A DNA stretch of 64,000 nt from contig CALSNU010000001.1 in assembly GCA_943787795.1 (NCBI GenBank), forward strand, positions 256,001 to 320,000, in the 5' to 3' direction. The position numbers and the translations under genes are program-made. Source of the DNA: an uncultured bacterium. GTDB taxonomy: Bacteria; Planctomycetota; UBA1135; GCA-002686595. Positions 28,220-64,000 of the stretch are shown here, piece by piece. The notes beneath the pieces are model-generated. The model worked only from the letters and a program-made list of their open reading frames with translations. It was not told where the DNA came from and did no database searches. Each line of letters begins with the position of its first letter. Within the stretch, counting starts at the first letter, position 1.

Positions 28220-29680
28220 TCAGTCCACCCGCTTCACGTCGGGCATCTTCCAGCTCCTGTCGAAGTACGACTCGAGCGGGCCGTAGAGGCGGAGGTAGAC
28301 GAAGAAGCCCTTCTCAGGATTCGACTCGATCCAGTTGTTCTCGTAGCCCGCGGGCGGGCTGCCGCCGATGATGACCTTCGTGCTCCCGTCAGGCTCGACC
28401 TTCAGCCCGCTCTGAACCGAGCTGATGTCGGACTTCCCCTGATCGTTCTGGATCAGGGTTCGGGTGTCGTTGTCATAGACCGTGATGGACCAGAACTGCT
28501 TGGCCGGCGAGTCCTTCGGAACGACCACCTCGTACTGGTGTCGGCCGTCGAGCCACTCACCCTCAGCATCCTGATACGCGCCGAGGTACTGTGAGCCAGC
28601 GCCCACGTTCTTCAGCACCATCGCCTTCGACGTCGTGATCGCCTCGTAGGCGTAGGCCCCGATCTCCATCGTCTCGTAGTAGCCCGGCGCGACATGGTCC
28701 AGATGGTTCATGTTCAGCACATACAGCCAGCTCCGGTCGGGCCAGTGCTTCTCCTTGACGGCATCCCGGCTGAAGCTGTTCACCATCGCGGCGGCGTTGC
28801 CGATCTCAGCGGCCTCGATGAGGAGTCGGGTCTGGCGCTCATCGGGCTCGAAGGGCTGCCCCTTCTCCATCCCGAGGCGCCGCATCTGGGTCAGGATGAA
28901 CCGGTTCCGGTCGACGACCGGCTCGTTCTGCAGCACCCGGTTCAGATCCTGCCAGTACTCCATGCCCCGCGACTGATCCCCCATCCACGTGGGCGACGAG
29001 GTCGCGTCGATGAACTTCTGGCCCCCGGGCTTCGCGCCGACGGCGTGGATCTGGTGCCCGTTCAAGACCGCCTTGTAGGCATCCCCCTCGAGGCCGATGA
29101 TCCGGCTGCCGATGAAGACGAGGTTGCTGCTGGACGACACGACGAAGTCGGCGTCGTGCTCCTCGGGGATCACGGACTCAGGGCCGACCATCAGGTAACG
29201 ACCGCCCTTTCCCTGGTCGGGCCCGACGACGCCGAGGTCCGCCTGCGGCGCCTGATAGATGTCGATGATCATGCCGCCGATCGGTCCCGCCGGCATGTCG
29301 AGGTAGTAGTTGCCCTCCGACAGATCGAGGAAGGTGAGCACGTAGGGCGTGGTCGTGTTGGCGGTCAGGATCGGGATCTTCTGATCGCGCTCCTCGTAGA
29401 TCAGCCAATCCCCGTACTCCGCCTCCTTCAGGAAGCCCGCACGCCACCGCTCGAGGCCGACGATCGGCAGCGCGTACTCGTGGGCCGAGATGGCCTGCGC
29501 GCGCAGCTGCTCGTCGCGAACAGGTTCCACGAGCGCCTGCTCGAGGTAGCCGTTGTCTTCGAACTTGATGGCGAGACTCTTGGGCGTCCCGGACGGGGCG
29601 CCGTTCAGCGACGCACAAGAAGCGCCCAGGGCGGCGGCCAGCAAGGCCAGCGGAAGGGGGAGGGTGTTGAGTGACGGCAT
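28220..29680 (-). CDS. DUF1254/DUF1214 lipoprotein
   Basis: GASC lipobox, LTANTTTPY, GPDQGKGGRYL, GAGSQYL, FWSITVYD, LRLYGP..W.MPD. Confidence 0.85.
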   Translation of the reverse strand: MPSLNTLPLPLALLAAALGASCASLNGAPSGTPKSLAIKFEDNGYLEQALVEPVRDEQLRAQAISAHEYALPIVGLERWRAGFLKEAEYGDWLIYEERDQKIPILTANTTTPYVLTFLDLSEGNYYLDMPAGPIGGMIIDIYQAPQADLGVVGPDQGKGGRYLMVGPESVIPEEHDADFVVSSSSNLVFIGSRIIGLEGDAYKAVLNGHQIHAVGAKPGGQKFIDATSSPTWMGDQSRGMEYWQDLNRVLQNEPVVDRNRFILTQMRRLGMEKGQPFEPDERQTRLLIEAAEIGNAAAMVNSFSRDAVKEKHWPDRSWLYVLNMNHLDHVAPGYYETMEIGAYAYEAITTSKAMVLKNVGAGSQYLGAYQDAEGEWLDGRHQYEVVVPKDSPAKQFWSITVYDNDTRTLIQNDQGKSDISSVQSGLKVEPDGSTKVIIGGSPPAGYENNWIESNPEKGFFVYLRLYGPLESYFDRSWKMPDVKRVD

Positions 29681-30032
29681 GGATGTTCCTTCTGTTGGGG
29701 TGGGGAGCCGCGCGCTCTGCTCATCGGCTGAGCACTTCACGGATCCGCTCCACCGGCTGGATTGAGGGCGAAGAGTATGAGGGATTGAGCGCGGGCCGAC
29801 AATGCAGACTCACGTCCAGCGGATGAGCGGTCCGAGCTGCCCGCTGCTGACGGACGGGGCGGGGCAGGGGGGCCTTGGGAACGATGGGGGACGGATGGCG
29901 CGAGTGGGCTGGGGCGGTGAGGAGCGAGCCCTGAGCCCATCAAGACGCCGCTCGCTCGTGGCCGTGGCTGTCCCAAGGCCCGAGCTCCCTTATGCGCTGG
30001 AGCCCAGGACGTGAACGTGGTGTGATCGCGCC

Positions 30033-31472: not shown

Positions 31473-32528
31473 TCAGCCGTCGGTCGGCTTCACGGACGGG
31501 ATCAGGCGGTAGCCCTCGTCCCGCACTCGCTTGGACGGCTTGTAGTGCCGGACGATCAGGTTGAAGGAGCCGGTCGGGTTGTCCGTCGGGATGTTGTTGA
31601 CCGCGTCGGCGCCGCACCCGAAGCGGATCGTGAAGGTGCCGTCGGCGTTCGGCGTGGCGGTGTTGGAATTCAGGCTGGCCAAGTCGCCGAACATGAAGCC
31701 CTTCTTGTCGTAGACGGTGAACGACCAGAAGGCGTCGTTGCCCGGGTCCTCGAAGGTGGCCTCGAAGCCCTCGCCGGTGGGGTAGTCGCCGGACATCTCG
31801 TAGATGTTGTCGACCCACTGCGCGCCGCCCCAGCCGCCAGCGGCGCCCGTCTGGTACTTCTCGTCGGTGTAGAGGGCGTTGGAGTCGTCGCGGGGGTCGG
31901 TGAACATGCCCCGGGTGGCGGTCACGCCCTCACGCTTCGCGATGGCGGGGAGCATCGCCTTGAGCTCGGTCTCGACCCGGTCGAAGGACTCGCGATGGAC
32001 GGGTTCGGCGGTGAACAGGTCGTTCGAGGCGGCCTCGATGACGATCTCGTCCTGGATCCGACTCGCCTCCTCCTCGGACAGCGTGGAGTCCAGTCGGACC
32101 AGGATGTAGAGGTGGGTGCCGGTGTGGGTGGACAGGTCGAAGGTGCCCGGGCCGTAGGTCATGGCCTGGATCCGGTGGTCCTCGGTCACCCCCTGGACGG
32201 ACACGTACTTGCCCTCCGGGATCTCCGGGATCGTGATCGTCGCGCCGCCGGAGACGTTCACGACCCCCATGGAGTAGTAGGTGTCCCGGTTCATGCGCAC
32301 CACGGTCTGCTCGTCGGTGGGGACGAGCTTGCGTCGGTGGTCCAGCTGGTTCACGCCGGAGGTCTCTTGCGCGATCAGGATCTGGCGAGACGTCTCGTGC
32401 GTGGGGTAGGTCGCCGCCGTGACGACCTCGCCGCCGTCGTCGACGAGGAAGGCGTCGACGGAGCTCTGCTGCGTCGCGCAGCTGAAGAGGAGGAGGGGCA
32501 GTAGAGAGGCTTGGAGGAGCTGGCGCAT
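31473..32528 (-). CDS. DUF1254/DUF1214 lipoprotein
   Basis: LFSC lipobox, VVRMNRDTYYS, AGGWGG, FWSFTVYD, NADGTFTIRFGC, VRHYKP. Confidence 0.85.
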   Translation of the reverse strand: MRQLLQASLLPLLLFSCATQQSSVDAFLVDDGGEVVTAATYPTHETSRQILIAQETSGVNQLDHRRKLVPTDEQTVVRMNRDTYYSMGVVNVSGGATITIPEIPEGKYVSVQGVTEDHRIQAMTYGPGTFDLSTHTGTHLYILVRLDSTLSEEEASRIQDEIVIEAASNDLFTAEPVHRESFDRVETELKAMLPAIAKREGVTATRGMFTDPRDDSNALYTDEKYQTGAAGGWGGAQWVDNIYEMSGDYPTGEGFEATFEDPGNDAFWSFTVYDKKGFMFGDLASLNSNTATPNADGTFTIRFGCGADAVNNIPTDNPTGSFNLIVRHYKPSKRVRDEGYRLIPSVKPTDG

Positions 32529-32684
32529 GGCTTGGAGCGAGCGTCTGTCGATTCGAGGGTTGGGAGGGGGAGGAGAGCGAGGGATTCTTGCGGGCCGACC
32601 CTCGCCGGGCTAGTGCGGCTCAGCTCAATACCTGCGGAGATGGGCCAGGAATACCCCCAACGCGGGCTCCACCCGGCGTCGCTC

Positions 32685-32760
32685 CCCCTCGGCTGGCGAC
32701 AGGCCCCTCGGTCGGCGACAGGCCCTTCGGTCGGCAACAGGCCCCTCGGCTGGCGACAGG
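32685..32760 (+). repeat. intergenic tandem repeat, 4 x 19 bp CCCCTCGG(CT/TC)GGCGACAGG
   Basis: Units start at 32685, 32704, 32723 and 32742, with few substitutions. Confidence 0.9.
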
Positions 32761-32821
32761 TGCAGCCCGACGACGCCGCCCCGGGACAAGGTCAAGGATG
32801 GGGACCGCTCCCTGGCTCAGC

Positions 32822-33555
32822 TCACCGGAAGGTGAGCTCCAGACGGCTCGTGAAGTTCGAGGTGACCTGGCCGGCCGCGGTGTCACGGAACCAGGCCTGG
32901 AAGCTCCAGGTGTCGCCCGGTTGGATCTGCACGAGGCCCGTGGGCGTGGGCTGCTCGGCCAGGTCGAGGGCGAGGGAGAAGGTGCCATCGGTCCCGGAGT
33001 CTTGGAGCTGACCGGGGCCGACGAAGCGGCCGATCGAGCCGCCGAGGCAGAGCACGCCCTGGCTACCACCCGGATGCGGGGCGAATCCCTGGGTCCGGGA
33101 GATGAGGAAGGAGCCGACGCTGTTCTGCGGCAGATCCGCGGCCCGGAGCGTGACGCGGTTGACCGTCACGTCGAGGCTCCCCGTGGCCGTCGCCACGCCC
33201 GAGAGCCCGTGGAATTGGGGACTGCAGGGCCGCAAGAGGCCACTCCTCGTTGGCCCATCAGGTTCTCGTACCAGGCGATCTTGCCGTCGTGCCAGCTGGC
33301 GGAGAGCACGTCCGCGTCGCCGTCTCCATCAAGGTCAGCGTCGTGGATCGATCGGACGTAATGAACGGTCGTCGTGATCTCGAGCTGGGGCCCGAAGGAC
33401 TGCGCCGCAGCAGGCGAGGCGAGGGCGGCGGCGCCGACGTCTCCCGGCAACTTCCATGAACGTCCCTGCGGTCCCAGCCGCCGATCGAGGTGAGAGGGCG
33501 GTCGATGAGCGCGGGTCGGTCCTCGAGGGATCCACGGGGCGGTGCCGAAGGACAT
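32822..33555 (-). pseudogene. remnant of a secreted FG-GAP/VCBS-repeat protein with the conserved C-terminal domain
   Basis: ALASPAAAQ signal end, one FG-GAP-type repeat (ADLDGDGDADVLSASW.D.KIAWYEN), then CGPAVPNSTG, a 1-nt deletion near 33207, and the rest of the domain ending WFRD..SNFT..LTFR. Confidence 0.7.
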
Positions 33556-54680: not shown

Positions 54681-56060
54681 TCAGTCCTTGGACTTGGCGA
54701 GGCAGTAGAGGAAGTCGCCCGTGCGCAGGTAGAGCCGGTCGCCCACGGCTACGGGGGAGGAGAGGGTGAAGGAGCCGTCGAGCTCGTTGACGGCCAGCTG
54801 CTTGAATTCAGGGCCCGCCGCGAGGACCACGGTGATGCCCTCCTCGTTGGTGATGTAGAGCTTGCCGTCCGCGAGCAGCGGGGACGAGGACACGGTCCCT
54901 TCGACGGTCCGCTCCGGGCCCCAGAGGGCCTCGCCGGTGGCGCCCACGATGCAGGTGACGAGCCCCGCGTCGTCCACCATGTAGAGGTGGGTCCCGTCAC
55001 TCGCCGGGGTCGGAACATCGGGGCCGCCGCGGGTGTCCCAGCGCCAGCGCACGTCCTCGTCGGTCAGGGGCTCGACGCCGCCCGTGTCGATGGCGAGCAC
55101 CGGCCGCTCGCGGGTCGGCGCCACCAAGATGTCGCCCACCATGACGGCCGACGGCACGATGCGGTAGTTCGTGGCCTTGCGCGGGTTGAGCCCGTCCACG
55201 CGCCACAGCTCCTTGCCGGAGTCGAGGGCGTGGCCCGTCACCACGTCGCCGCCGGTGATGACGAGCTCGGCGCCGCCCTCGCGCTCGATCACCAGCGGCG
55301 TGGTGTAGGCGTCGGGGGACTCGCGCGGCGCGTCGGTGGGCCGCTCGGCGTGCCAGCGGAGCTCGCCCGACTTCGCGTCGAAGGCCGCGATGTAGGAGGG
55401 GTCGTCGGTCTTCATCCCGTGCAGCACCTGCACGATCAGGAGGCCATCGTGGAGCACCGGGGAGGAGGCGTAGCCCCAGAGAAGCCCGAACGGACCCCAG
55501 CGCTCCTGCAGGTTGGTGGACCACGCCAGCTCGCCATCGAAGTCGTGGGCGCTCACGGTCCCGTTCCCGGTGACGGTCCACACGTGGGCCCCGTCGGTGA
55601 CCGGAGAGGCCGAGGCGCGGTTGGCCTTGTAGTGGAGCTCATTGCCCTCGTCGAGGCTCCGCGACCAGCGCACCGCTCCGTCCGTCGTGCTCAGGCAGTG
55701 GAGCAGCATCTGGGGGCCGCCCGGATCACGGCGCGGCCGCCGCCGCCCCTTGGGCTGCTCCTCGGGAGCTTCGGGCGCGGGGGACGAGGCGGAGAGGACG
55801 AAGAGGTGGTCGCCGCTGATGGCGGGGGTCGCGCCGGAGAACGTGGGCATCGGGGTTCGCCAGACCACGTGCTCCTCGACGGTCCACGTGGTGGGGAGCC
55901 CCTCCGCGTCTGGCGCGGTTCCCCGGAGCTCGGGGCCCCTCCAGTTGCTCCACCCGGGCTGGCCGTCCTGGGGGCCGGCGAGCGGCGCCGGGGCCGAGGG
56001 TGGCGTGGCTGCGGCGAGGAAGAGGACGCCCAGGAGCGAGGAGAGGGGAGGAATCGTCAT
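54681..56060 (-). CDS. PQQ-like beta-propeller protein
   Basis: Signal peptide, WSNWRGP, ASASPVTDG, YASSPV, SSPVAVGDRLYLRT. Confidence 0.9.
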   Translation of the reverse strand: MTIPPLSSLLGVLFLAAATPPSAPAPLAGPQDGQPGWSNWRGPELRGTAPDAEGLPTTWTVEEHVVWRTPMPTFSGATPAISGDHLFVLSASSPAPEAPEEQPKGRRRPRRDPGGPQMLLHCLSTTDGAVRWSRSLDEGNELHYKANRASASPVTDGAHVWTVTGNGTVSAHDFDGELAWSTNLQERWGPFGLLWGYASSPVLHDGLLIVQVLHGMKTDDPSYIAAFDAKSGELRWHAERPTDAPRESPDAYTTPLVIEREGGAELVITGGDVVTGHALDSGKELWRVDGLNPRKATNYRIVPSAVMVGDILVAPTRERPVLAIDTGGVEPLTDEDVRWRWDTRGGPDVPTPASDGTHLYMVDDAGLVTCIVGATGEALWGPERTVEGTVSSSPLLADGKLYITNEEGITVVLAAGPEFKQLAVNELDGSFTLSSPVAVGDRLYLRTGDFLYCLAKSKD

Positions 56061-58030: not shown

Positions 58031-59395
58031 ATGAATCGAACACTGCTCTCCGCCTGCGCCGCCGCGCTCACGCTCTCCGCTCTCGCCGGGTCCGCCGAGG
58101 CCTTCTCGATCCAGGAGGGGGACAGCTGGCCCTCCTGGCGCGGGCCGGACCGGAACGGCGTGGCCCCCTCGGGCGGCGCGCCGACCGTCTGGGGTGAGGA
58201 GAAGAACGTTCGCTGGCGCGCCGAGCTGCCTGGTCTGGGTATCTCGACGCCGGTGATCTGGGGCGACTACCTCTACGTCACCACCGCGGTGGAGACCGAC
58301 AAGCTTGCCGATGGGGCGAAGGCCGAGCCCGAGCCCGAGGGAGGCCGGCGCCGTGGTCGGCGGGGCCGGGGCTCATCGGGTCCGAAGAAGGTCCACGAGT
58401 TCCGCGTCATGTGCGTCAGCCGTGCGGATGGCAGCCTGGTCTGGAGCCAGAAGGTCGCCGAGACCGCGCCGCACGAGGGCATCCATGGGACCAACTCCCA
58501 GGCGTCGGCGTCACCGATCACGGACGGCGAGCACATCTGGGCCTTCTTTGGCTCCCGCGGCCTGCACTGCCTCGACATGGAGGGCGACCTCGTCTGGTCG
58601 AAGGACTTCGGGAAGATGAAGACCCGCAACGAGTTCGGTGAGGGCGCGTCGCCGGCCGTCCACGGCGACAAGATCGTGGTGCTCTGGGACCACGAGGGGG
58701 TCGACTTCATCGCCGCCGTCAACAAGGAGACGGGTAAGGAAGCCTGGCGGACCGAGCGAGACGAGGTCACCACGTGGGTCACGCCTCTCATCGTTCCGGT
58801 TGGAGATCAGGTCCAGGTCATCACGACGGGAACGGACGCGTCGCGCGCCTACAACCTCGAAAACGGCGAGGAGATCTGGTCCATCGGGGGGATGACGACC
58901 AACTGCGTGCCGACGCCCATTCACAAGGACGGGGTCGTGTACTTGATGAGCGGCTTCCGCGGCTCTGCGCTGCAGGCCATCAAGCTCGAGGGTGCGGTCG
59001 GAGACCTCAAGGAGAGCAAGAACCTGCTCTGGAGCTACGGCAAGAACACGCCCTATGTTCCGTCCGGCGTGCTCGTCGACGGGAAGCTCTACTTCCTGCG
59101 GGTCAACTCTGGTCGCGTGACGTGCCTCGACGCGGCGAGCGGCAAGGAGCACTTCTCGGCGGAGAACCTGGGTGGGATCCGCTCGGTCTACGCTTCCCTC
59201 ACGGCCTCGGGTGGGAACATCTACGCGGCGTCCCGAGAGGGCGAGACCGTCATCTTCAAGGTGAGCGACACCTTCGAGCAGGTCGCCTCGAACACCCTCG
59301 ACGACGCCTTCGACGCCTCACCGGTGATGGTGGACGGCGAGCTGTACCTGCGCGGGCGCAAGGCCCTCTACTGCATCACAGCCGACGGCGAGTGA
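58031..59395 (+). CDS. PQQ-like beta-propeller protein
   Basis: Signal peptide, SWPSWRGP, ASASPITDG, GEGASP, ASPVMVDGELYLRG. Confidence 0.9.
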   Translation: MNRTLLSACAAALTLSALAGSAEAFSIQEGDSWPSWRGPDRNGVAPSGGAPTVWGEEKNVRWRAELPGLGISTPVIWGDYLYVTTAVETDKLADGAKAEPEPEGGRRRGRRGRGSSGPKKVHEFRVMCVSRADGSLVWSQKVAETAPHEGIHGTNSQASASPITDGEHIWAFFGSRGLHCLDMEGDLVWSKDFGKMKTRNEFGEGASPAVHGDKIVVLWDHEGVDFIAAVNKETGKEAWRTERDEVTTWVTPLIVPVGDQVQVITTGTDASRAYNLENGEEIWSIGGMTTNCVPTPIHKDGVVYLMSGFRGSALQAIKLEGAVGDLKESKNLLWSYGKNTPYVPSGVLVDGKLYFLRVNSGRVTCLDAASGKEHFSAENLGGIRSVYASLTASGGNIYAASREGETVIFKVSDTFEQVASNTLDDAFDASPVMVDGELYLRGRKALYCITADGE

Positions 59396-60454: not shown

Positions 60455-61489
60455 TCAGTACAGGGTGACCTGGACGGGGAGTGAGAAGTTGGAGACCGGG
60501 AATCCGAGGACCGCGTCGCGGTACCAGCACTGGAAGTGCCAGGTCTCTCCCGACATGGCGGCGACCGGACCGGTCGGCTGGGAGAGTCCCGCGAGGTCAA
60601 GCGCCAGGCTCATCTCACCAGAGGAGGAGGCGGCCTGAGCGGACGCGCTGTAGCGACCGATGGACCCCCCGAGGCAGAGCGTGCCAACCGCGTTCCCGGG
60701 ATTGACGATCTGGTCGATGGTGGTGCTCGTGAGGAAGTAGCCGACCGCCCCGCCGGGCAGGGCGTTGCAGCGGACCTCGAGCTCGTTCCGCAGGATGGAC
60801 GGGCTCCCATCGAGGGAGGTCATTGCGACCTGGCCGGTCTGATTCGCCGCGGCGACGCAATACGACTCGCCCACGGGCGGACAGACCACGGCGATGAAGA
60901 CGCCGGGGCTCCCAACGTCCCCGTTCACGGAGGTGGTCGAGCCCCACGCGTCACCTTCGGCGGCGAGGGTCCAGCGGTAGATGTCGTTCACTCCGAGCCC
61001 GGCGTCGCACCCCTGGCCGCTGACCTCTCGAGCTCGAATCGAACCGGGGAAGTCCTCGTCTCCATAGGCGAGCACGTCCACCGTCGCGCCGGCGGCGTCG
61101 AAGAGGTGGATCTCGTCGTTGCGTCCGAGGGAGGAGATCGCGTTCCCCCCGAGGACCGTGACGGCGCCCAGGCTCCAGCTCGCCACGAAGTTGGCGGCGA
61201 CCCGGTCAGTGACGAGGATGGACTCGCCCGGGTCGATAATCCCGGCGAGGGAGAGGTCATAGGTCCCCGCAATGGCCGACTTGTCGTCGATGCTCCAGTC
61301 CTCGAGATCGACGGGCAGCGAGGACAGGTTGGTGAGCTCGATGAACTCGCCGTCGAGGCCGCTGTACATGTACTCGGTGATCTGGACCTGGCCCGAGGCC
61401 TGGGCCGCGAGGGCGCTGAACGCGATGAACGAGAGTACCGCTGGAGCGGGAGTGAAGCGGAGGGAGAGAGTCATGGAGGAGCAGCTCAT
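60455..61489 (-). CDS. secreted lamin-tail-domain (LTD) protein with the conserved C-terminal domain
   Basis: Signal peptide ending ASGQ, ITEYMY..EFIELTN..VDL..WSI..PGE, GSPG, then the ~138-aa domain ending WYRD..SNFS..VTLY. Confidence 0.85.
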   Translation of the reverse strand: MSCSSMTLSLRFTPAPAVLSFIAFSALAAQASGQVQITEYMYSGLDGEFIELTNLSSLPVDLEDWSIDDKSAIAGTYDLSLAGIIDPGESILVTDRVAANFVASWSLGAVTVLGGNAISSLGRNDEIHLFDAAGATVDVLAYGDEDFPGSIRAREVSGQGCDAGLGVNDIYRWTLAAEGDAWGSTTSVNGDVGSPGVFIAVVCPPVGESYCVAAANQTGQVAMTSLDGSPSILRNELEVRCNALPGGAVGYFLTSTTIDQIVNPGNAVGTLCLGGSIGRYSASAQAASSSGEMSLALDLAGLSQPTGPVAAMSGETWHFQCWYRDAVLGFPVSNFSLPVQVTLY

Positions 61490-64000
61490 TCGAAGTTCAC
61501 CGCGAGGCCGTTGGTGAAGTTGGAGACGGGCTGGCCGCCCAGGGAGTCACGGTGCCACAGCTGCCAGTACCACGTCTCGCCAGGCATGGCGGACACGAAG
61601 CCGGTGGGCTGGGGCAGCGCCGTGAGGTCGAGGGTGAGCGCGATCTCGCCAGCGGCGCCCGAGTTCCCGATCTGGCCGGGGCCGACGTAGCGGCCGATGG
61701 GCGCGCCGAGGCAGAGGTTTCCAAGACTGCCTCCGGGGTTCGGCGAGAAGCCGGTGTTGGCGCTCACGAGGAGGTATCCCGTGGAGCCGGTGGGCAGGCT
61801 CGAGGCGACCAGGGTCACGTCGTTGTCCGCTGCCTCGCGGCTGCCGTCGGCGCGCAGCGCCGAGGCCGCTCCCGTCGAGTTGGCGTTCGCGACGCAGAAG
61901 GGCGTCCCGATGCCGCCGCACGGGGCCCCGGTGAAGGAGCCGGGGTTACCGACATCGCCGTTCAGCGAGGTCACCGAGTCCTGATAGTCGCCCTCGAATG
62001 AGAGGGACCACAGCAGAGGATTCTCGGCGCCCCAGTCCATCGGCGCAGACCCACGCGGAGGCTTCGCGCGCCGCGAACGGAACCGGGATAGTCCTCGTCA
62101 CCGTACAGCAGGCGATCCTCGATGGCGCCGGTGTCGTCGAAGACGTAGATCCCGTCGTTTCGGCCGAAGGTGGCGTTGACGTTACCCTCGAGAACGGTCA
62201 CGCCGGTGAGACCCCAGTCGAGCTGGAAGGACGCCGCGGCGCCCTCGGTGATCACGATGGACTCGCCGGGGTCAACGACGCCCGCCGCGGAGAGGTCGAA
62301 GGTGCCGGCGTTCGCGGAGCTGTCGTCGACGCTCCACCCGGTGAGGTCGATCGCGGCGCCGGACGTGTTGGTCAGCTCGACGAACTCGTCGCCGTTGCCG
62401 GAGTACATGTACTCGGTGATGCGGATCCCTGCGCTGCCGAACGGGTAGCTGAAGCCGGCGGGCTTGCCCTCGGCGAACTTTGGGGCGTAGCGCTGACCGC
62501 CCCCGACGCCCAGGGGGGCACCGGCCTCGACGTAGTAGTCGAGGCGGCCGCCAGCGGTCCCGGGGATCGGCAGCTGAGCGCCGAACACGCCGTCGCCAGC
62601 GGCGCCGTCACCGTTGAGGCCGTCGTCGAACATCGGTACCGGGATGTAGCGGCCGATCTCTCGGTAGTAGAGGTTGGCGAAGCCCACCGTCGAGCCAGGG
62701 GTCTGGATCCGCGCGGTGATGAAGGTCGGCGTGCCGACGGTCGGTGCCGCGGGGGTGTGGGCCAGCTCGGTGATCTGCGGTTGGACCTTGGTCAGGTCCG
62801 GCTGGTTCAGCAGGAAGTTGCGCCGCGTCACCAGGTACTGCTCGAGGCCCGGGCAGGGGAGGGTCGAGCCGCCGACGTTCACGAACGTCTGGGTGTTGAA
62901 GTTCGACTGGAACTGGGCGTACGAGTAGAGGCGCTTGGGGTCCGCCAGGACGGCCGCGTCGATGAGCGCCTTGTATCCGAGGAGATCGCCCTGGAGGTCG
63001 GCCCAGCTGAAGTCCTCGAGCATGGTCCGATAGTGCGCGAAGTAGCGTTCCCGCAGGCGCGGGATGGTCATCAGGCGCGAGACCGCCGGCCTGCTGCCGG
63101 CGTTGAAGCGGTAGGTGGGCGACAGGTTCGTGGTGGTGCCGCCGGGCCAACCGAACAGGCTCACGCCCCAGGACTCGTTGCCGTCGTGCTGGTGGAGGTT
63201 GATCCTGTCGTGGAGGGGGTCGTAGTAGACGTTGAAGTCAGCGCCCTTGGAGATGTAGCTGTCCTCGTCCATGAACAGGTTCTCTGCGACCAAGGCCCAG
63301 ATCGCTCCGTCCACGGCGAACTTCTCGTCGATGGCGGCGACGTCGGCGCCTGAGTTGTTCAGGGCGAACGTGCCGTCGATCATCGGCTGCCAGGGCAGGG
63401 CGAGGCCGCCGTTGTCCTTGAGCTGGTAGTTCTGGGCGTACGAGTTCGGGTTGGTGCCGATGTAGCGCAGCGCGTCCTGGCCGGTGGAGATGTTCTGGGC
63501 CTTGTACCGGGCGCCGCCCGATTCCTCGAAGTACTCGTCGAGCAGCTGGGTGTTGTACTGCTGGACGTTGACGTAGACGCCCCAGTTCTCCCCGTTGAGC
63601 CGGAGCTGCACGTGGTTCCCCTGGCCGGCCGGCGTGTACCTGCGGACGAAGCGGAAGAACCCGATCTCACGGCAGAACGTGGGGTCCTCGATCCCGTTGT
63701 TCAGGTTCAGCGTCCTGTAGCCGAGCAGCCGCGCACCGTTGTCGGACTCGGTGATCTCGATGTTGAACGAGGTCTTCTGCGATCCAGGGGGGAGGAAGAA
63801 GAACGACGAGTTGCCCTTCACCCGGATCCCGACCCCAGGGATGGTGACTGGCGTGGGGAGGTCGGGACCCGAGAGGGTCAGGTCCACCACGAGGTTGACT
63901 CCCGTGTTGGCTGTGTTGCGGAGTGTCCCCCAGAAGTTCGTCTGCGGCAGCGTGATGTCGATCGTCCGCAGGACGGTGTCGTCGTAGAGATCAGGCTCCT
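61486..64000 (-). CDS. CotH-family kinase + Ig-like + LTD + conserved C-terminal domain; 5'-truncated, two frameshifts at ~62030-62075
   Basis: GVGIRVKGNSS, KTSFNI, LNLNN..DPT..RE, NGENWGVY, D.DSY..DFNVY, HDGNESWG (CotH); MFDDG.NGD..AGDGVF; ITEYMY..EFVELTN (LTD). Alignment to the downstream paralog restores the frame. Confidence 0.85.

Follow-up and report, generated by a model that had tools for sequence, protein, structure and literature searches.

A large family of terminal, predicted beta-sandwich domains on exported Planctomycetota proteins, with a candidate partner linked to type II secretion genes

Cargo proteins of the type IX secretion system (T9SS) of Bacteroidota combine extracellular passengers with a C-terminal immunoglobulin (Ig)-like domain, a signal peptide I and, frequently, a Gln at position +1. 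For type II secretion, by the T2SS, we know of no common substrate signal. How the T2SS chooses its cargo is called elusive in a paper in which a fibronectin type III (Fn3) domain carries T2SS secretion signals in its loops, a precedent for the domain treated here (PMC7949064). For freshwater planctomycetes it has been proposed that dockerins assemble a complex at the cell surface, the 'planctosome' hypothesis (PMC6461901). Here we analyse a domain that closes three genes in a 64,000-nucleotide stretch of an uncultured planctomycete genome (the window: G000:C1:256001-320000, contig CALSNU010000001.1; genome G000, 4.71 Mb, 84.9% complete). The domain was found on about 3% of the predicted genes of G000 (104-113 of 3336). 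Very likely it is an envelope-targeting or anchoring tag, when three readings weighed below (T2SS tag, anchor only, T9SS-like signal) are taken jointly. We infer that it is recognised by lineage-specific machinery, for which a candidate factor, here called protein X, is linked to T2SS genes.

The first-pass annotation of the window had described three genes ending in one module. All three modules were confirmed at the 3' ends of genes on the minus strand, with the motifs ascribed to them and the endings LELTFR, VQVTLY and LAVNFE; among the carrier genes, only the middle one is intact, the other two being frameshifted (Table 1). A profile started from these copies and iterated to convergence across all six-frame open reading frames (ORFs) of G000 recovered 104 copies in 104 ORFs, most at E below 1e-20 and far beyond chance, in line with the many paralogs that had been predicted. 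A second profile added four copies, for a total of 108, and a tail iteration about five more; none of the 108 carriers has two copies. The domain ends at most two residues before the stop codon in 102 of the 104 copies. The exceptions are an out-of-frame fragment and a gene at C6:243723, in which the module stands right behind the signal peptide. The latter gene (C6:243723-244898, L243) has a C-terminal region with a single CxxCH, cytochrome c-like, that gave no Pfam match. In the distant genome G175, of which 2.31 Mb were compared, 24 copies were found by profile, 21 of them C-terminal and three directly after a signal peptide; tail iteration raised the count to 48, with one decoy match among 2304 reversed tails. 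The best 150 library matches include 147 C-terminal (at most five residues from the end) and two N-terminal domains, the latter also directly after the signal peptide. The restriction to C-termini that had been claimed is thus a strong bias and not a strict rule.

The carriers are mostly signal-peptide proteins, as had been supposed. A codon model called 3336 genes, to which we applied a heuristic of our own in place of SignalP. It assigned signal peptide I to 85 of 100 carriers and, among 2671 non-membrane genes without the domain, to 932 (p 5e-24), the latter count being inflated because the heuristic is permissive; at a stricter setting the figures are 70 of 100 and 507 of 2671. By the same heuristic, Gln occupies position +1 of the cleavage site in 58/85 carriers vs 132/932 others. 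Two lipoprotein calls among the carriers appear false by inspection. A hydrophobic window downstream was seen in just one of 100 carriers, in agreement with the proposed lack of a transmembrane helix. The passengers are of extracellular types and poor in Lys/Arg (4.1% vs 10.2%). They comprise CotH, lamin tail, FG-GAP, endonuclease I, GH16, M43, CBM2, IPT/TIG, Kelch and MauG-type peroxidase domains. All 117 homologues found in the protein database have the domain at the end, and the named sources are Planctomycetota, including the isolate Poly30 (P0116). Two genes of G000 (C4:661668-663890 and C4:709581-711851) are identical over their last 160 residues, which hold a divergent copy of the domain, and represent a recent duplication.

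Two subtypes could be distinguished. The cysteine-bearing subtype, described by profile A1, matches 79 of 84 genomes of its own family, and the weak A1 matches in sister families represent a divergent, C-terminal and cysteine-poor subtype (28 of 30 loci). Profile A2 was made for this divergent subtype, leaving out the two other loci, which are false FG-GAP matches, and also L071 and L072. A profile-profile comparison relates A1 to A2 with probability 99.5, a value that is slightly circular because three A2 rows are also in A1. When 251 Planctomycetota genomes were searched with A2, 55 matched: 51 are domain-rich (9-17 of 17 scored candidates positive), four have one or two copies, and the remaining 196 have none. 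The distribution of the domain is all-or-none. An apparently patchy distribution inside the class was a profile artefact, the 'poor' genomes carrying the divergent subtype. In the library, A2 matched 36,490 clusters at 50% identity, 11,471 of them at 1e-10.

The family appears to be undescribed, as the first-pass annotation had held. With E limits of 0.1 or 0.01, no Pfam or NCBIfam model covered the domain, sequence searches of the PDB gave weak antibody light-chain matches only (best E 0.0013), and the ESM Atlas returned unnamed Planctomycetota clusters only. No description was found in the literature covered, most subscription papers and all supplements, which could mention the domain, lying outside that scope; in the main text of the Saltatorellota preprint (10.1101/817700), which describes the isolates Poly30 and Pla133, the strings 'secret' and 'signal peptide' are absent. 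Structure prediction gave confident all-beta models for both subtypes (pLDDT, the predicted local distance difference test, 97.3 and 90.8), and the fold is predicted to be a generic Ig-like beta-sandwich. VIA-align produced generic Ig/Fn3-like matches that span some 90 of the 140 residues, with Z reaching 8.6 and 8.1; neither cohesin nor an isolated T9SS C-terminal domain (CTD) was among the 50 rows listed, which does not exclude them. Foldseek gave nothing at E<=0.001 with either subtype model. The model has a long predicted hairpin (residues 44-74), and many copies have a hydrophobic sequence at its tip. Two Cys had been taken as invariant. Both are aligned in 87 of 100 G000 copies, the second is lost in just three of 100, and they are often absent from the divergent subtype; this paired loss is consistent with a disulfide that is dispensable for the wider family. 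Of the disulfide-stabilised beta-sandwich proposed earlier, the predicted sandwich therefore stands, and the disulfide is not family-wide. Nor is the terminal aromatic residue universal: among 102 copies, the last residue is Gln in 35, Pro in 19 and Phe in 3, and the penultimate one is Phe in 60. Few copies, a frequently non-terminal position, carriers lacking signal peptides or a match to a known domain had been named as counter-evidence to a sorting domain, and none of these was borne out as a general feature. As a whole, the first-pass interpretation keeps its beta-sandwich, many copies, C-terminal bias, signal peptides and lack of a catalogued family, and loses the family-wide disulfide and the strict C-terminal position.

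The search for a machinery compared G000 with G175 and gave 939 reciprocal best hits. Of these, the screen covered those with signal peptides in both genomes (129), 107 of which were scanned with Pfam. No conserved unannotated outer-membrane barrel stood out in this comparison. A T2SS operon (GspD, E, F, G and minor pseudopilins; G000 C3:436324-444746) is syntenic in G175, and gspG was detected at 1e-8 in 20 of 22 domain-rich genomes. Two genes from the operon lies protein X, an unannotated protein of about 680 residues whose signal peptide is followed by Gln (+1). Its N-terminal half gives the impression, from sequence, of being helical and its C-terminal half of being beta-rich; shorter paralogues of the C-terminal part are more widespread. 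Searches of Pfam and the PDB gave no match to protein X, and those of the ESM Atlas gave unnamed Planctomycetota clusters only. A profile of protein X, run on the 251 genomes searched with A2, reached E<=3.7e-42, a cut-off set post hoc, in all but one of the 51 domain-rich genomes (50) and in none of the other 200. The sole domain-rich genome missing it, G163, has 890 contigs. Protein X shares a contig with a gspG, at a distance of no more than 12 kb, in 13 of 22 domain-rich genomes, and lies at most 6 kb from serS in 17 of 22; where serS has moved, in G032, protein X still stands by gspG. Eight weak matches to protein X in negative genomes, in which linkage was judged from coordinates, include none linked to gspG or serS. 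Protein X followed the distribution of the domain more closely than two control genes did, and protein X and the domain were probably gained or lost together.

Several other genes are of note. An unannotated exported protein of about 790 residues (G175 L172:7580-9943; G000 C3:486551-488986) is about 50-60% identical across distant families and occurs in 25 of 55 genomes, so marking a clade slightly larger than that of the domain. A third type IV filament-like cluster (G000 C1:921725-938716, L241; G175 L135) contains PilM-like, TPR protein, pilin-like and PPIase lipoprotein genes, together with a giant protein of 1744 residues that begins like GspK and matches nothing in Pfam. This giant protein was rejected as a partner, since it is spread more widely than the domain (22/22 rich and 15/33 others, 37/55 in all). 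A third secretin, at G000 C1:1038453, adjoins another GspK-like gene. A glutaminyl cyclase (PF05096; G000 C4:270292-271014) fits the frequent +1 Gln of exported proteins; as a domain-linked gene it was ruled out, being present in just two of five domain-rich genomes. A profile of the N-terminal half of protein X was also set aside as too insensitive, with 4 of 10 known carriers of protein X and 0 of 16 others detected.

We hypothesize, tentatively, that the domain is a portable tag read by protein X, by which cargo reaches the surface through the T2SS and is retained there non-covalently. To judge from the sequences, this is quite possible, though we would not call it probable. Carriers would be exported by Sec and cleaved by signal peptidase I, often exposing a Gln, in keeping with the sequence pattern observed. 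They would fold in the periplasm, where a disulfide could form in the cysteine-bearing subtype. Heme-binding passengers point to export after periplasmic folding, for which the maturation of c-type cytochromes is established background. As the domain occurs at either end of proteins, it would be recognised as a fold and not through a free C-terminus, with lineage-specific protein X as the candidate reader given its co-occurrence and linkage. Exit would follow through the T2SS secretin, the only suitable route detected, and the domain would then hold its cargo non-covalently at the surface, a role that dockerins apparently fill in other planctomycetes. That the domain is a universal portable T2SS cargo tag in one large group of Planctomycetota, read by protein X as a dedicated periplasmic adaptor and directing to the surface folded proteins that number in the hundreds and are unrelated to one another, we regard as rather unlikely.

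Several observations weigh against the proposed reading by protein X and the T2SS. GspG is present in 8 of 8 domain-negative genomes, so that the T2SS does not need the domain as a tag, and it was not found at 1e-8 in two domain-rich genomes. The gap that separates positive from negative genomes for protein X is narrow (3.7e-42 vs 1.3e-38), the profile comes from domain-rich genomes, and matches to about 230 residues of the protein occur in 23 others at E>=1.3e-38. Since protein X also adjoins serS in many genomes, its neighbourhood may be inherited synteny. One control gene, of unknown function, is nearly as close to the domain in distribution (21/22 rich, 4/33 others); its four extra genomes form one supported branch without expansion of the domain, where protein X was not found. 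A quick RpoC tree covering 30 genomes, 16 of them domain-rich, requires two changes for the latter, which may be one clade. The co-occurrence could thus amount to one or two evolutionary events, and shared ancestry may explain it. The Fn3 domain of the T2SS substrates PelI and Pel3 is, as here, a terminal beta-sandwich on an exported enzyme (Z 8.3-8.4, root-mean-square deviation (rmsd) 2.5-2.6, 86-88 residues aligned), and this match, tied with unrelated Ig domains at 8-12% identity, proves nothing. Finally, a tail is altogether missing from some homologues of the TonB-operon protein discussed next (e.g. P0157, P0160, P0234).

It is possible, if doubtful, that the domain only anchors proteins at the surface, non-covalently and after export, by binding to an outer-membrane lipid, a lipopolysaccharide or glycan or a scaffold protein; export would then not depend on the domain, and protein X would be an unrelated lineage marker. 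An exchange with dockerins, on one passenger and at the level of genomes, speaks for such an anchor, as it does for the tag proposed above. A conserved operon (G000 C2:198401-211203; G175 L179) encodes a TonB-dependent receptor, DUF3450, ExbB/ExbD/TonB-like proteins, a TPR lipoprotein and a domain-bearing PF28492 protein. Among the 120 best homologues of one protein of this operon, 75 end in the domain, 10 carry a PF00404 dockerin and none has both; other homologues have dockerin-like repeats, recognised by eye, or no tail. Dockerins are expanded (12, 34 and 78) in 3 of 30 domain-negative genomes, five of the 30 being classed so by absence from the A2-positive list, vs 0-4 matches in 31 domain-rich genomes and none in G000. 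Also compatible with an anchor are the occurrence of the domain at either terminus, its unusually uncharged composition (Lys+Arg 2.9%, Asp+Glu 5.8%; passengers 4.1% and 11.8%), the hydrophobic hairpin tip predicted in many copies, and T2SS genes that are widespread in genomes without the domain. However, cohesin (PF00963) was found in 0 of 5 domain-rich genomes (85-94% complete), with the control positive in 2 of 14, and no repeat scaffold was noticed among the exported proteins common to G000 and G175. Matches to the lipid-binding ML-type fold are weak (TM-score about 0.35-0.39, E about 1e-2), and an anchor alone leaves the tight match with protein X unexplained.

A C-terminal sorting signal of the T9SS kind, recognised by a translocon of the outer membrane that is yet to be discovered, cleaved on export and combined with covalent attachment of the cargo, seems improbable to us. 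It would account for the position, the Ig-like fold, the signal peptide I with Gln at +1, the resemblance of passengers to T9SS cargo and the all-or-none distribution; a PorU region is among the tied fold matches (Z 7.9, rmsd 2.7, 99 aligned), which proves nothing. However, a copy that immediately follows the signal peptide cannot act as a C-terminal signal to be cleaved. SprA and GldN/PorN (TIGR04189, TIGR03523) were detected in 0 of 5 genomes, a result limited by control genomes that were silent too; no conserved unannotated barrel emerged from the comparison of G000 with G175, and type A CTDs of T9SS have about half the length of this domain. We consider it slightly more improbable still that the domain is a generic Ig-like accessory, which would serve as spacer, folding aid, adhesin or carbohydrate binder and would have spread by domain shuffling without a common receptor. 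The generic fold, the very weak conservation of sequence in the wider family and the passengers that occur without the domain speak for it. Generic Ig domains, however, are usually internal and tandem, whereas here a single copy is found in every carrier, almost always terminal, and all-or-none across genomes. Highly improbable, in our view, is an internal ester or similar reactive bond between a conserved Gln and a Ser/Thr, for stabilisation or covalent attachment. These are the best-kept positions across subtypes, the Gln in the penultimate strand (95/102 in G000, 19/21 in G175) and the Ser/Thr opening the last strand (100/102 and 19/21), and ester-bond adhesin domains head one Foldseek list. 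Those matches are weak (TM-score 0.32-0.35, E about 1e-2), however, the Gln is retained in just 10 of the 24 most divergent copies, and there is no conserved His/Asp pair of the kind known from ester domains.

The genes of the window that carry the domain, and protein X, are listed in Table 1. The signal-peptide-like sites followed by Gln, as first described, are present in the window genes, and the start of the CotH gene, just outside the window, likewise has a signal peptide and then Gln. In G378 the orthologue of the CotH gene is uninterrupted over 969 codons, and relative to it the window has two extra bases. The frameshifts in the CotH gene and in copy 1 may be real lesions or errors of assembly. 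Copy 1 is split, with Cys-x-NSTG in ORF 33166-33555 and the rest in ORF 32822-33235. Together with the FG-GAP remnant it is probably a decayed gene, because only a short, one-repeat remnant lies upstream and no match spanning the locus plus flanks was found in four congeneric genomes, among 150 of 220 matches listed. Two exported proteins adjoin decayed copy 1 (28220-29740 and 31473-32528), which we take to resemble the DUF1254/DUF1214 family, and a short repeated sequence at 32600-32800 suggests a recently rearranged spot. Two further genes of the window (54681-56060 and 58031-59395) encode PQQ/BamB-like beta-propeller paralogues that have signal peptides and stand on either side of a ThuA/3-keto-disaccharide hydrolase protein, whose orthologue is present in G175.

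Table 1. Coordinates of the domain copies, their genes and protein X (window positions unless a genome is named)
Feature	Position	Strand	Description
Copy 1 of the domain	32822..33240	-	frameshift near 33200; profile E 1e-50, distal frame
Remnant upstream of copy 1	33241..33425	-	Ala-Ala-Ala/Gln signal-peptide-like site and single FG-GAP repeat (PF13517, E 2.8e-5)
Intact 344-aa gene	60455..61489	-	Ala-Ser-Gly/Gln signal peptide; lamin tail domain aa 29-143 (PF00932, E 5e-18); C-terminal copy 2
Copy 2 of the domain	60455..60874	-	aa 205-344 of the 344-aa gene; profile E 6e-48
Copy 3 of the domain	61486..61911	-	sequence used for folding; predicted all-beta, pLDDT 97.3
CotH kinase / choice-of-anchor X / lamin tail protein with copy 3	61486..64000	-	frameshift near 62000; start beyond the window
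Protein X	G000 C3:432184-434475 (L242:1185-3476); G175 L214:13502-15643		beside serS and the T2SS operon

The domain defines what is likely the surface proteome of a group that is widespread, for the most part uncultured and inclusive of the isolate Poly30, and makes up a large family outside Pfam and NCBIfam. If the reading by protein X and the T2SS is true, an addressing logic in the style of T9SS would have been built on the T2SS. A portable tag and a candidate adaptor would then make T2SS cargo choice directly testable, with a possible use in surface display. If the domain is an anchor only, it would be a new and very large counterpart of the dockerins.

Comparison with known systems places the domain as follows. 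It resembles the T9SS CTD in its paralogous Ig-like C-terminal position, its signal-peptide-I carriers, their passengers and the Gln at +1. In contrast to that CTD, it is about 130-140 residues long and sometimes stands at the mature N-terminus, and it gives no match to the profiles TIGR04183, PF18962 or TIGR04131. Type I dockerins (PF00404) of Phycisphaerae and other planctomycetes take the place of the domain on one passenger family and are expanded in complementary genomes, whereas the domain is predicted to be all-beta, lacks paired Ca-binding repeats and does not match PF00404. The Fn3 domain of PelI and Pel3 is limited to a few enzymes and forms part of a composite signal, unlike a domain carried by over a hundred unrelated proteins per genome. 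PEP-CTERM/exosortase and LPXTG/sortase systems likewise have a paralogous C-terminal tag on diverse exported proteins and an all-or-none distribution across genomes; here, however, a folded soluble domain is expected, without short motif, transmembrane helix, basic tail (Lys+Arg 3%) or NCBIfam match. The autotransporter or BAM beta-signal belongs to a C-terminal membrane barrel with a final aromatic residue, whereas the domain is predicted to be a soluble sandwich. By the tests run, the domain is outside the T9SS CTD, dockerin, PEP-CTERM and autotransporter families, and it resembles the first two in position and cargo.

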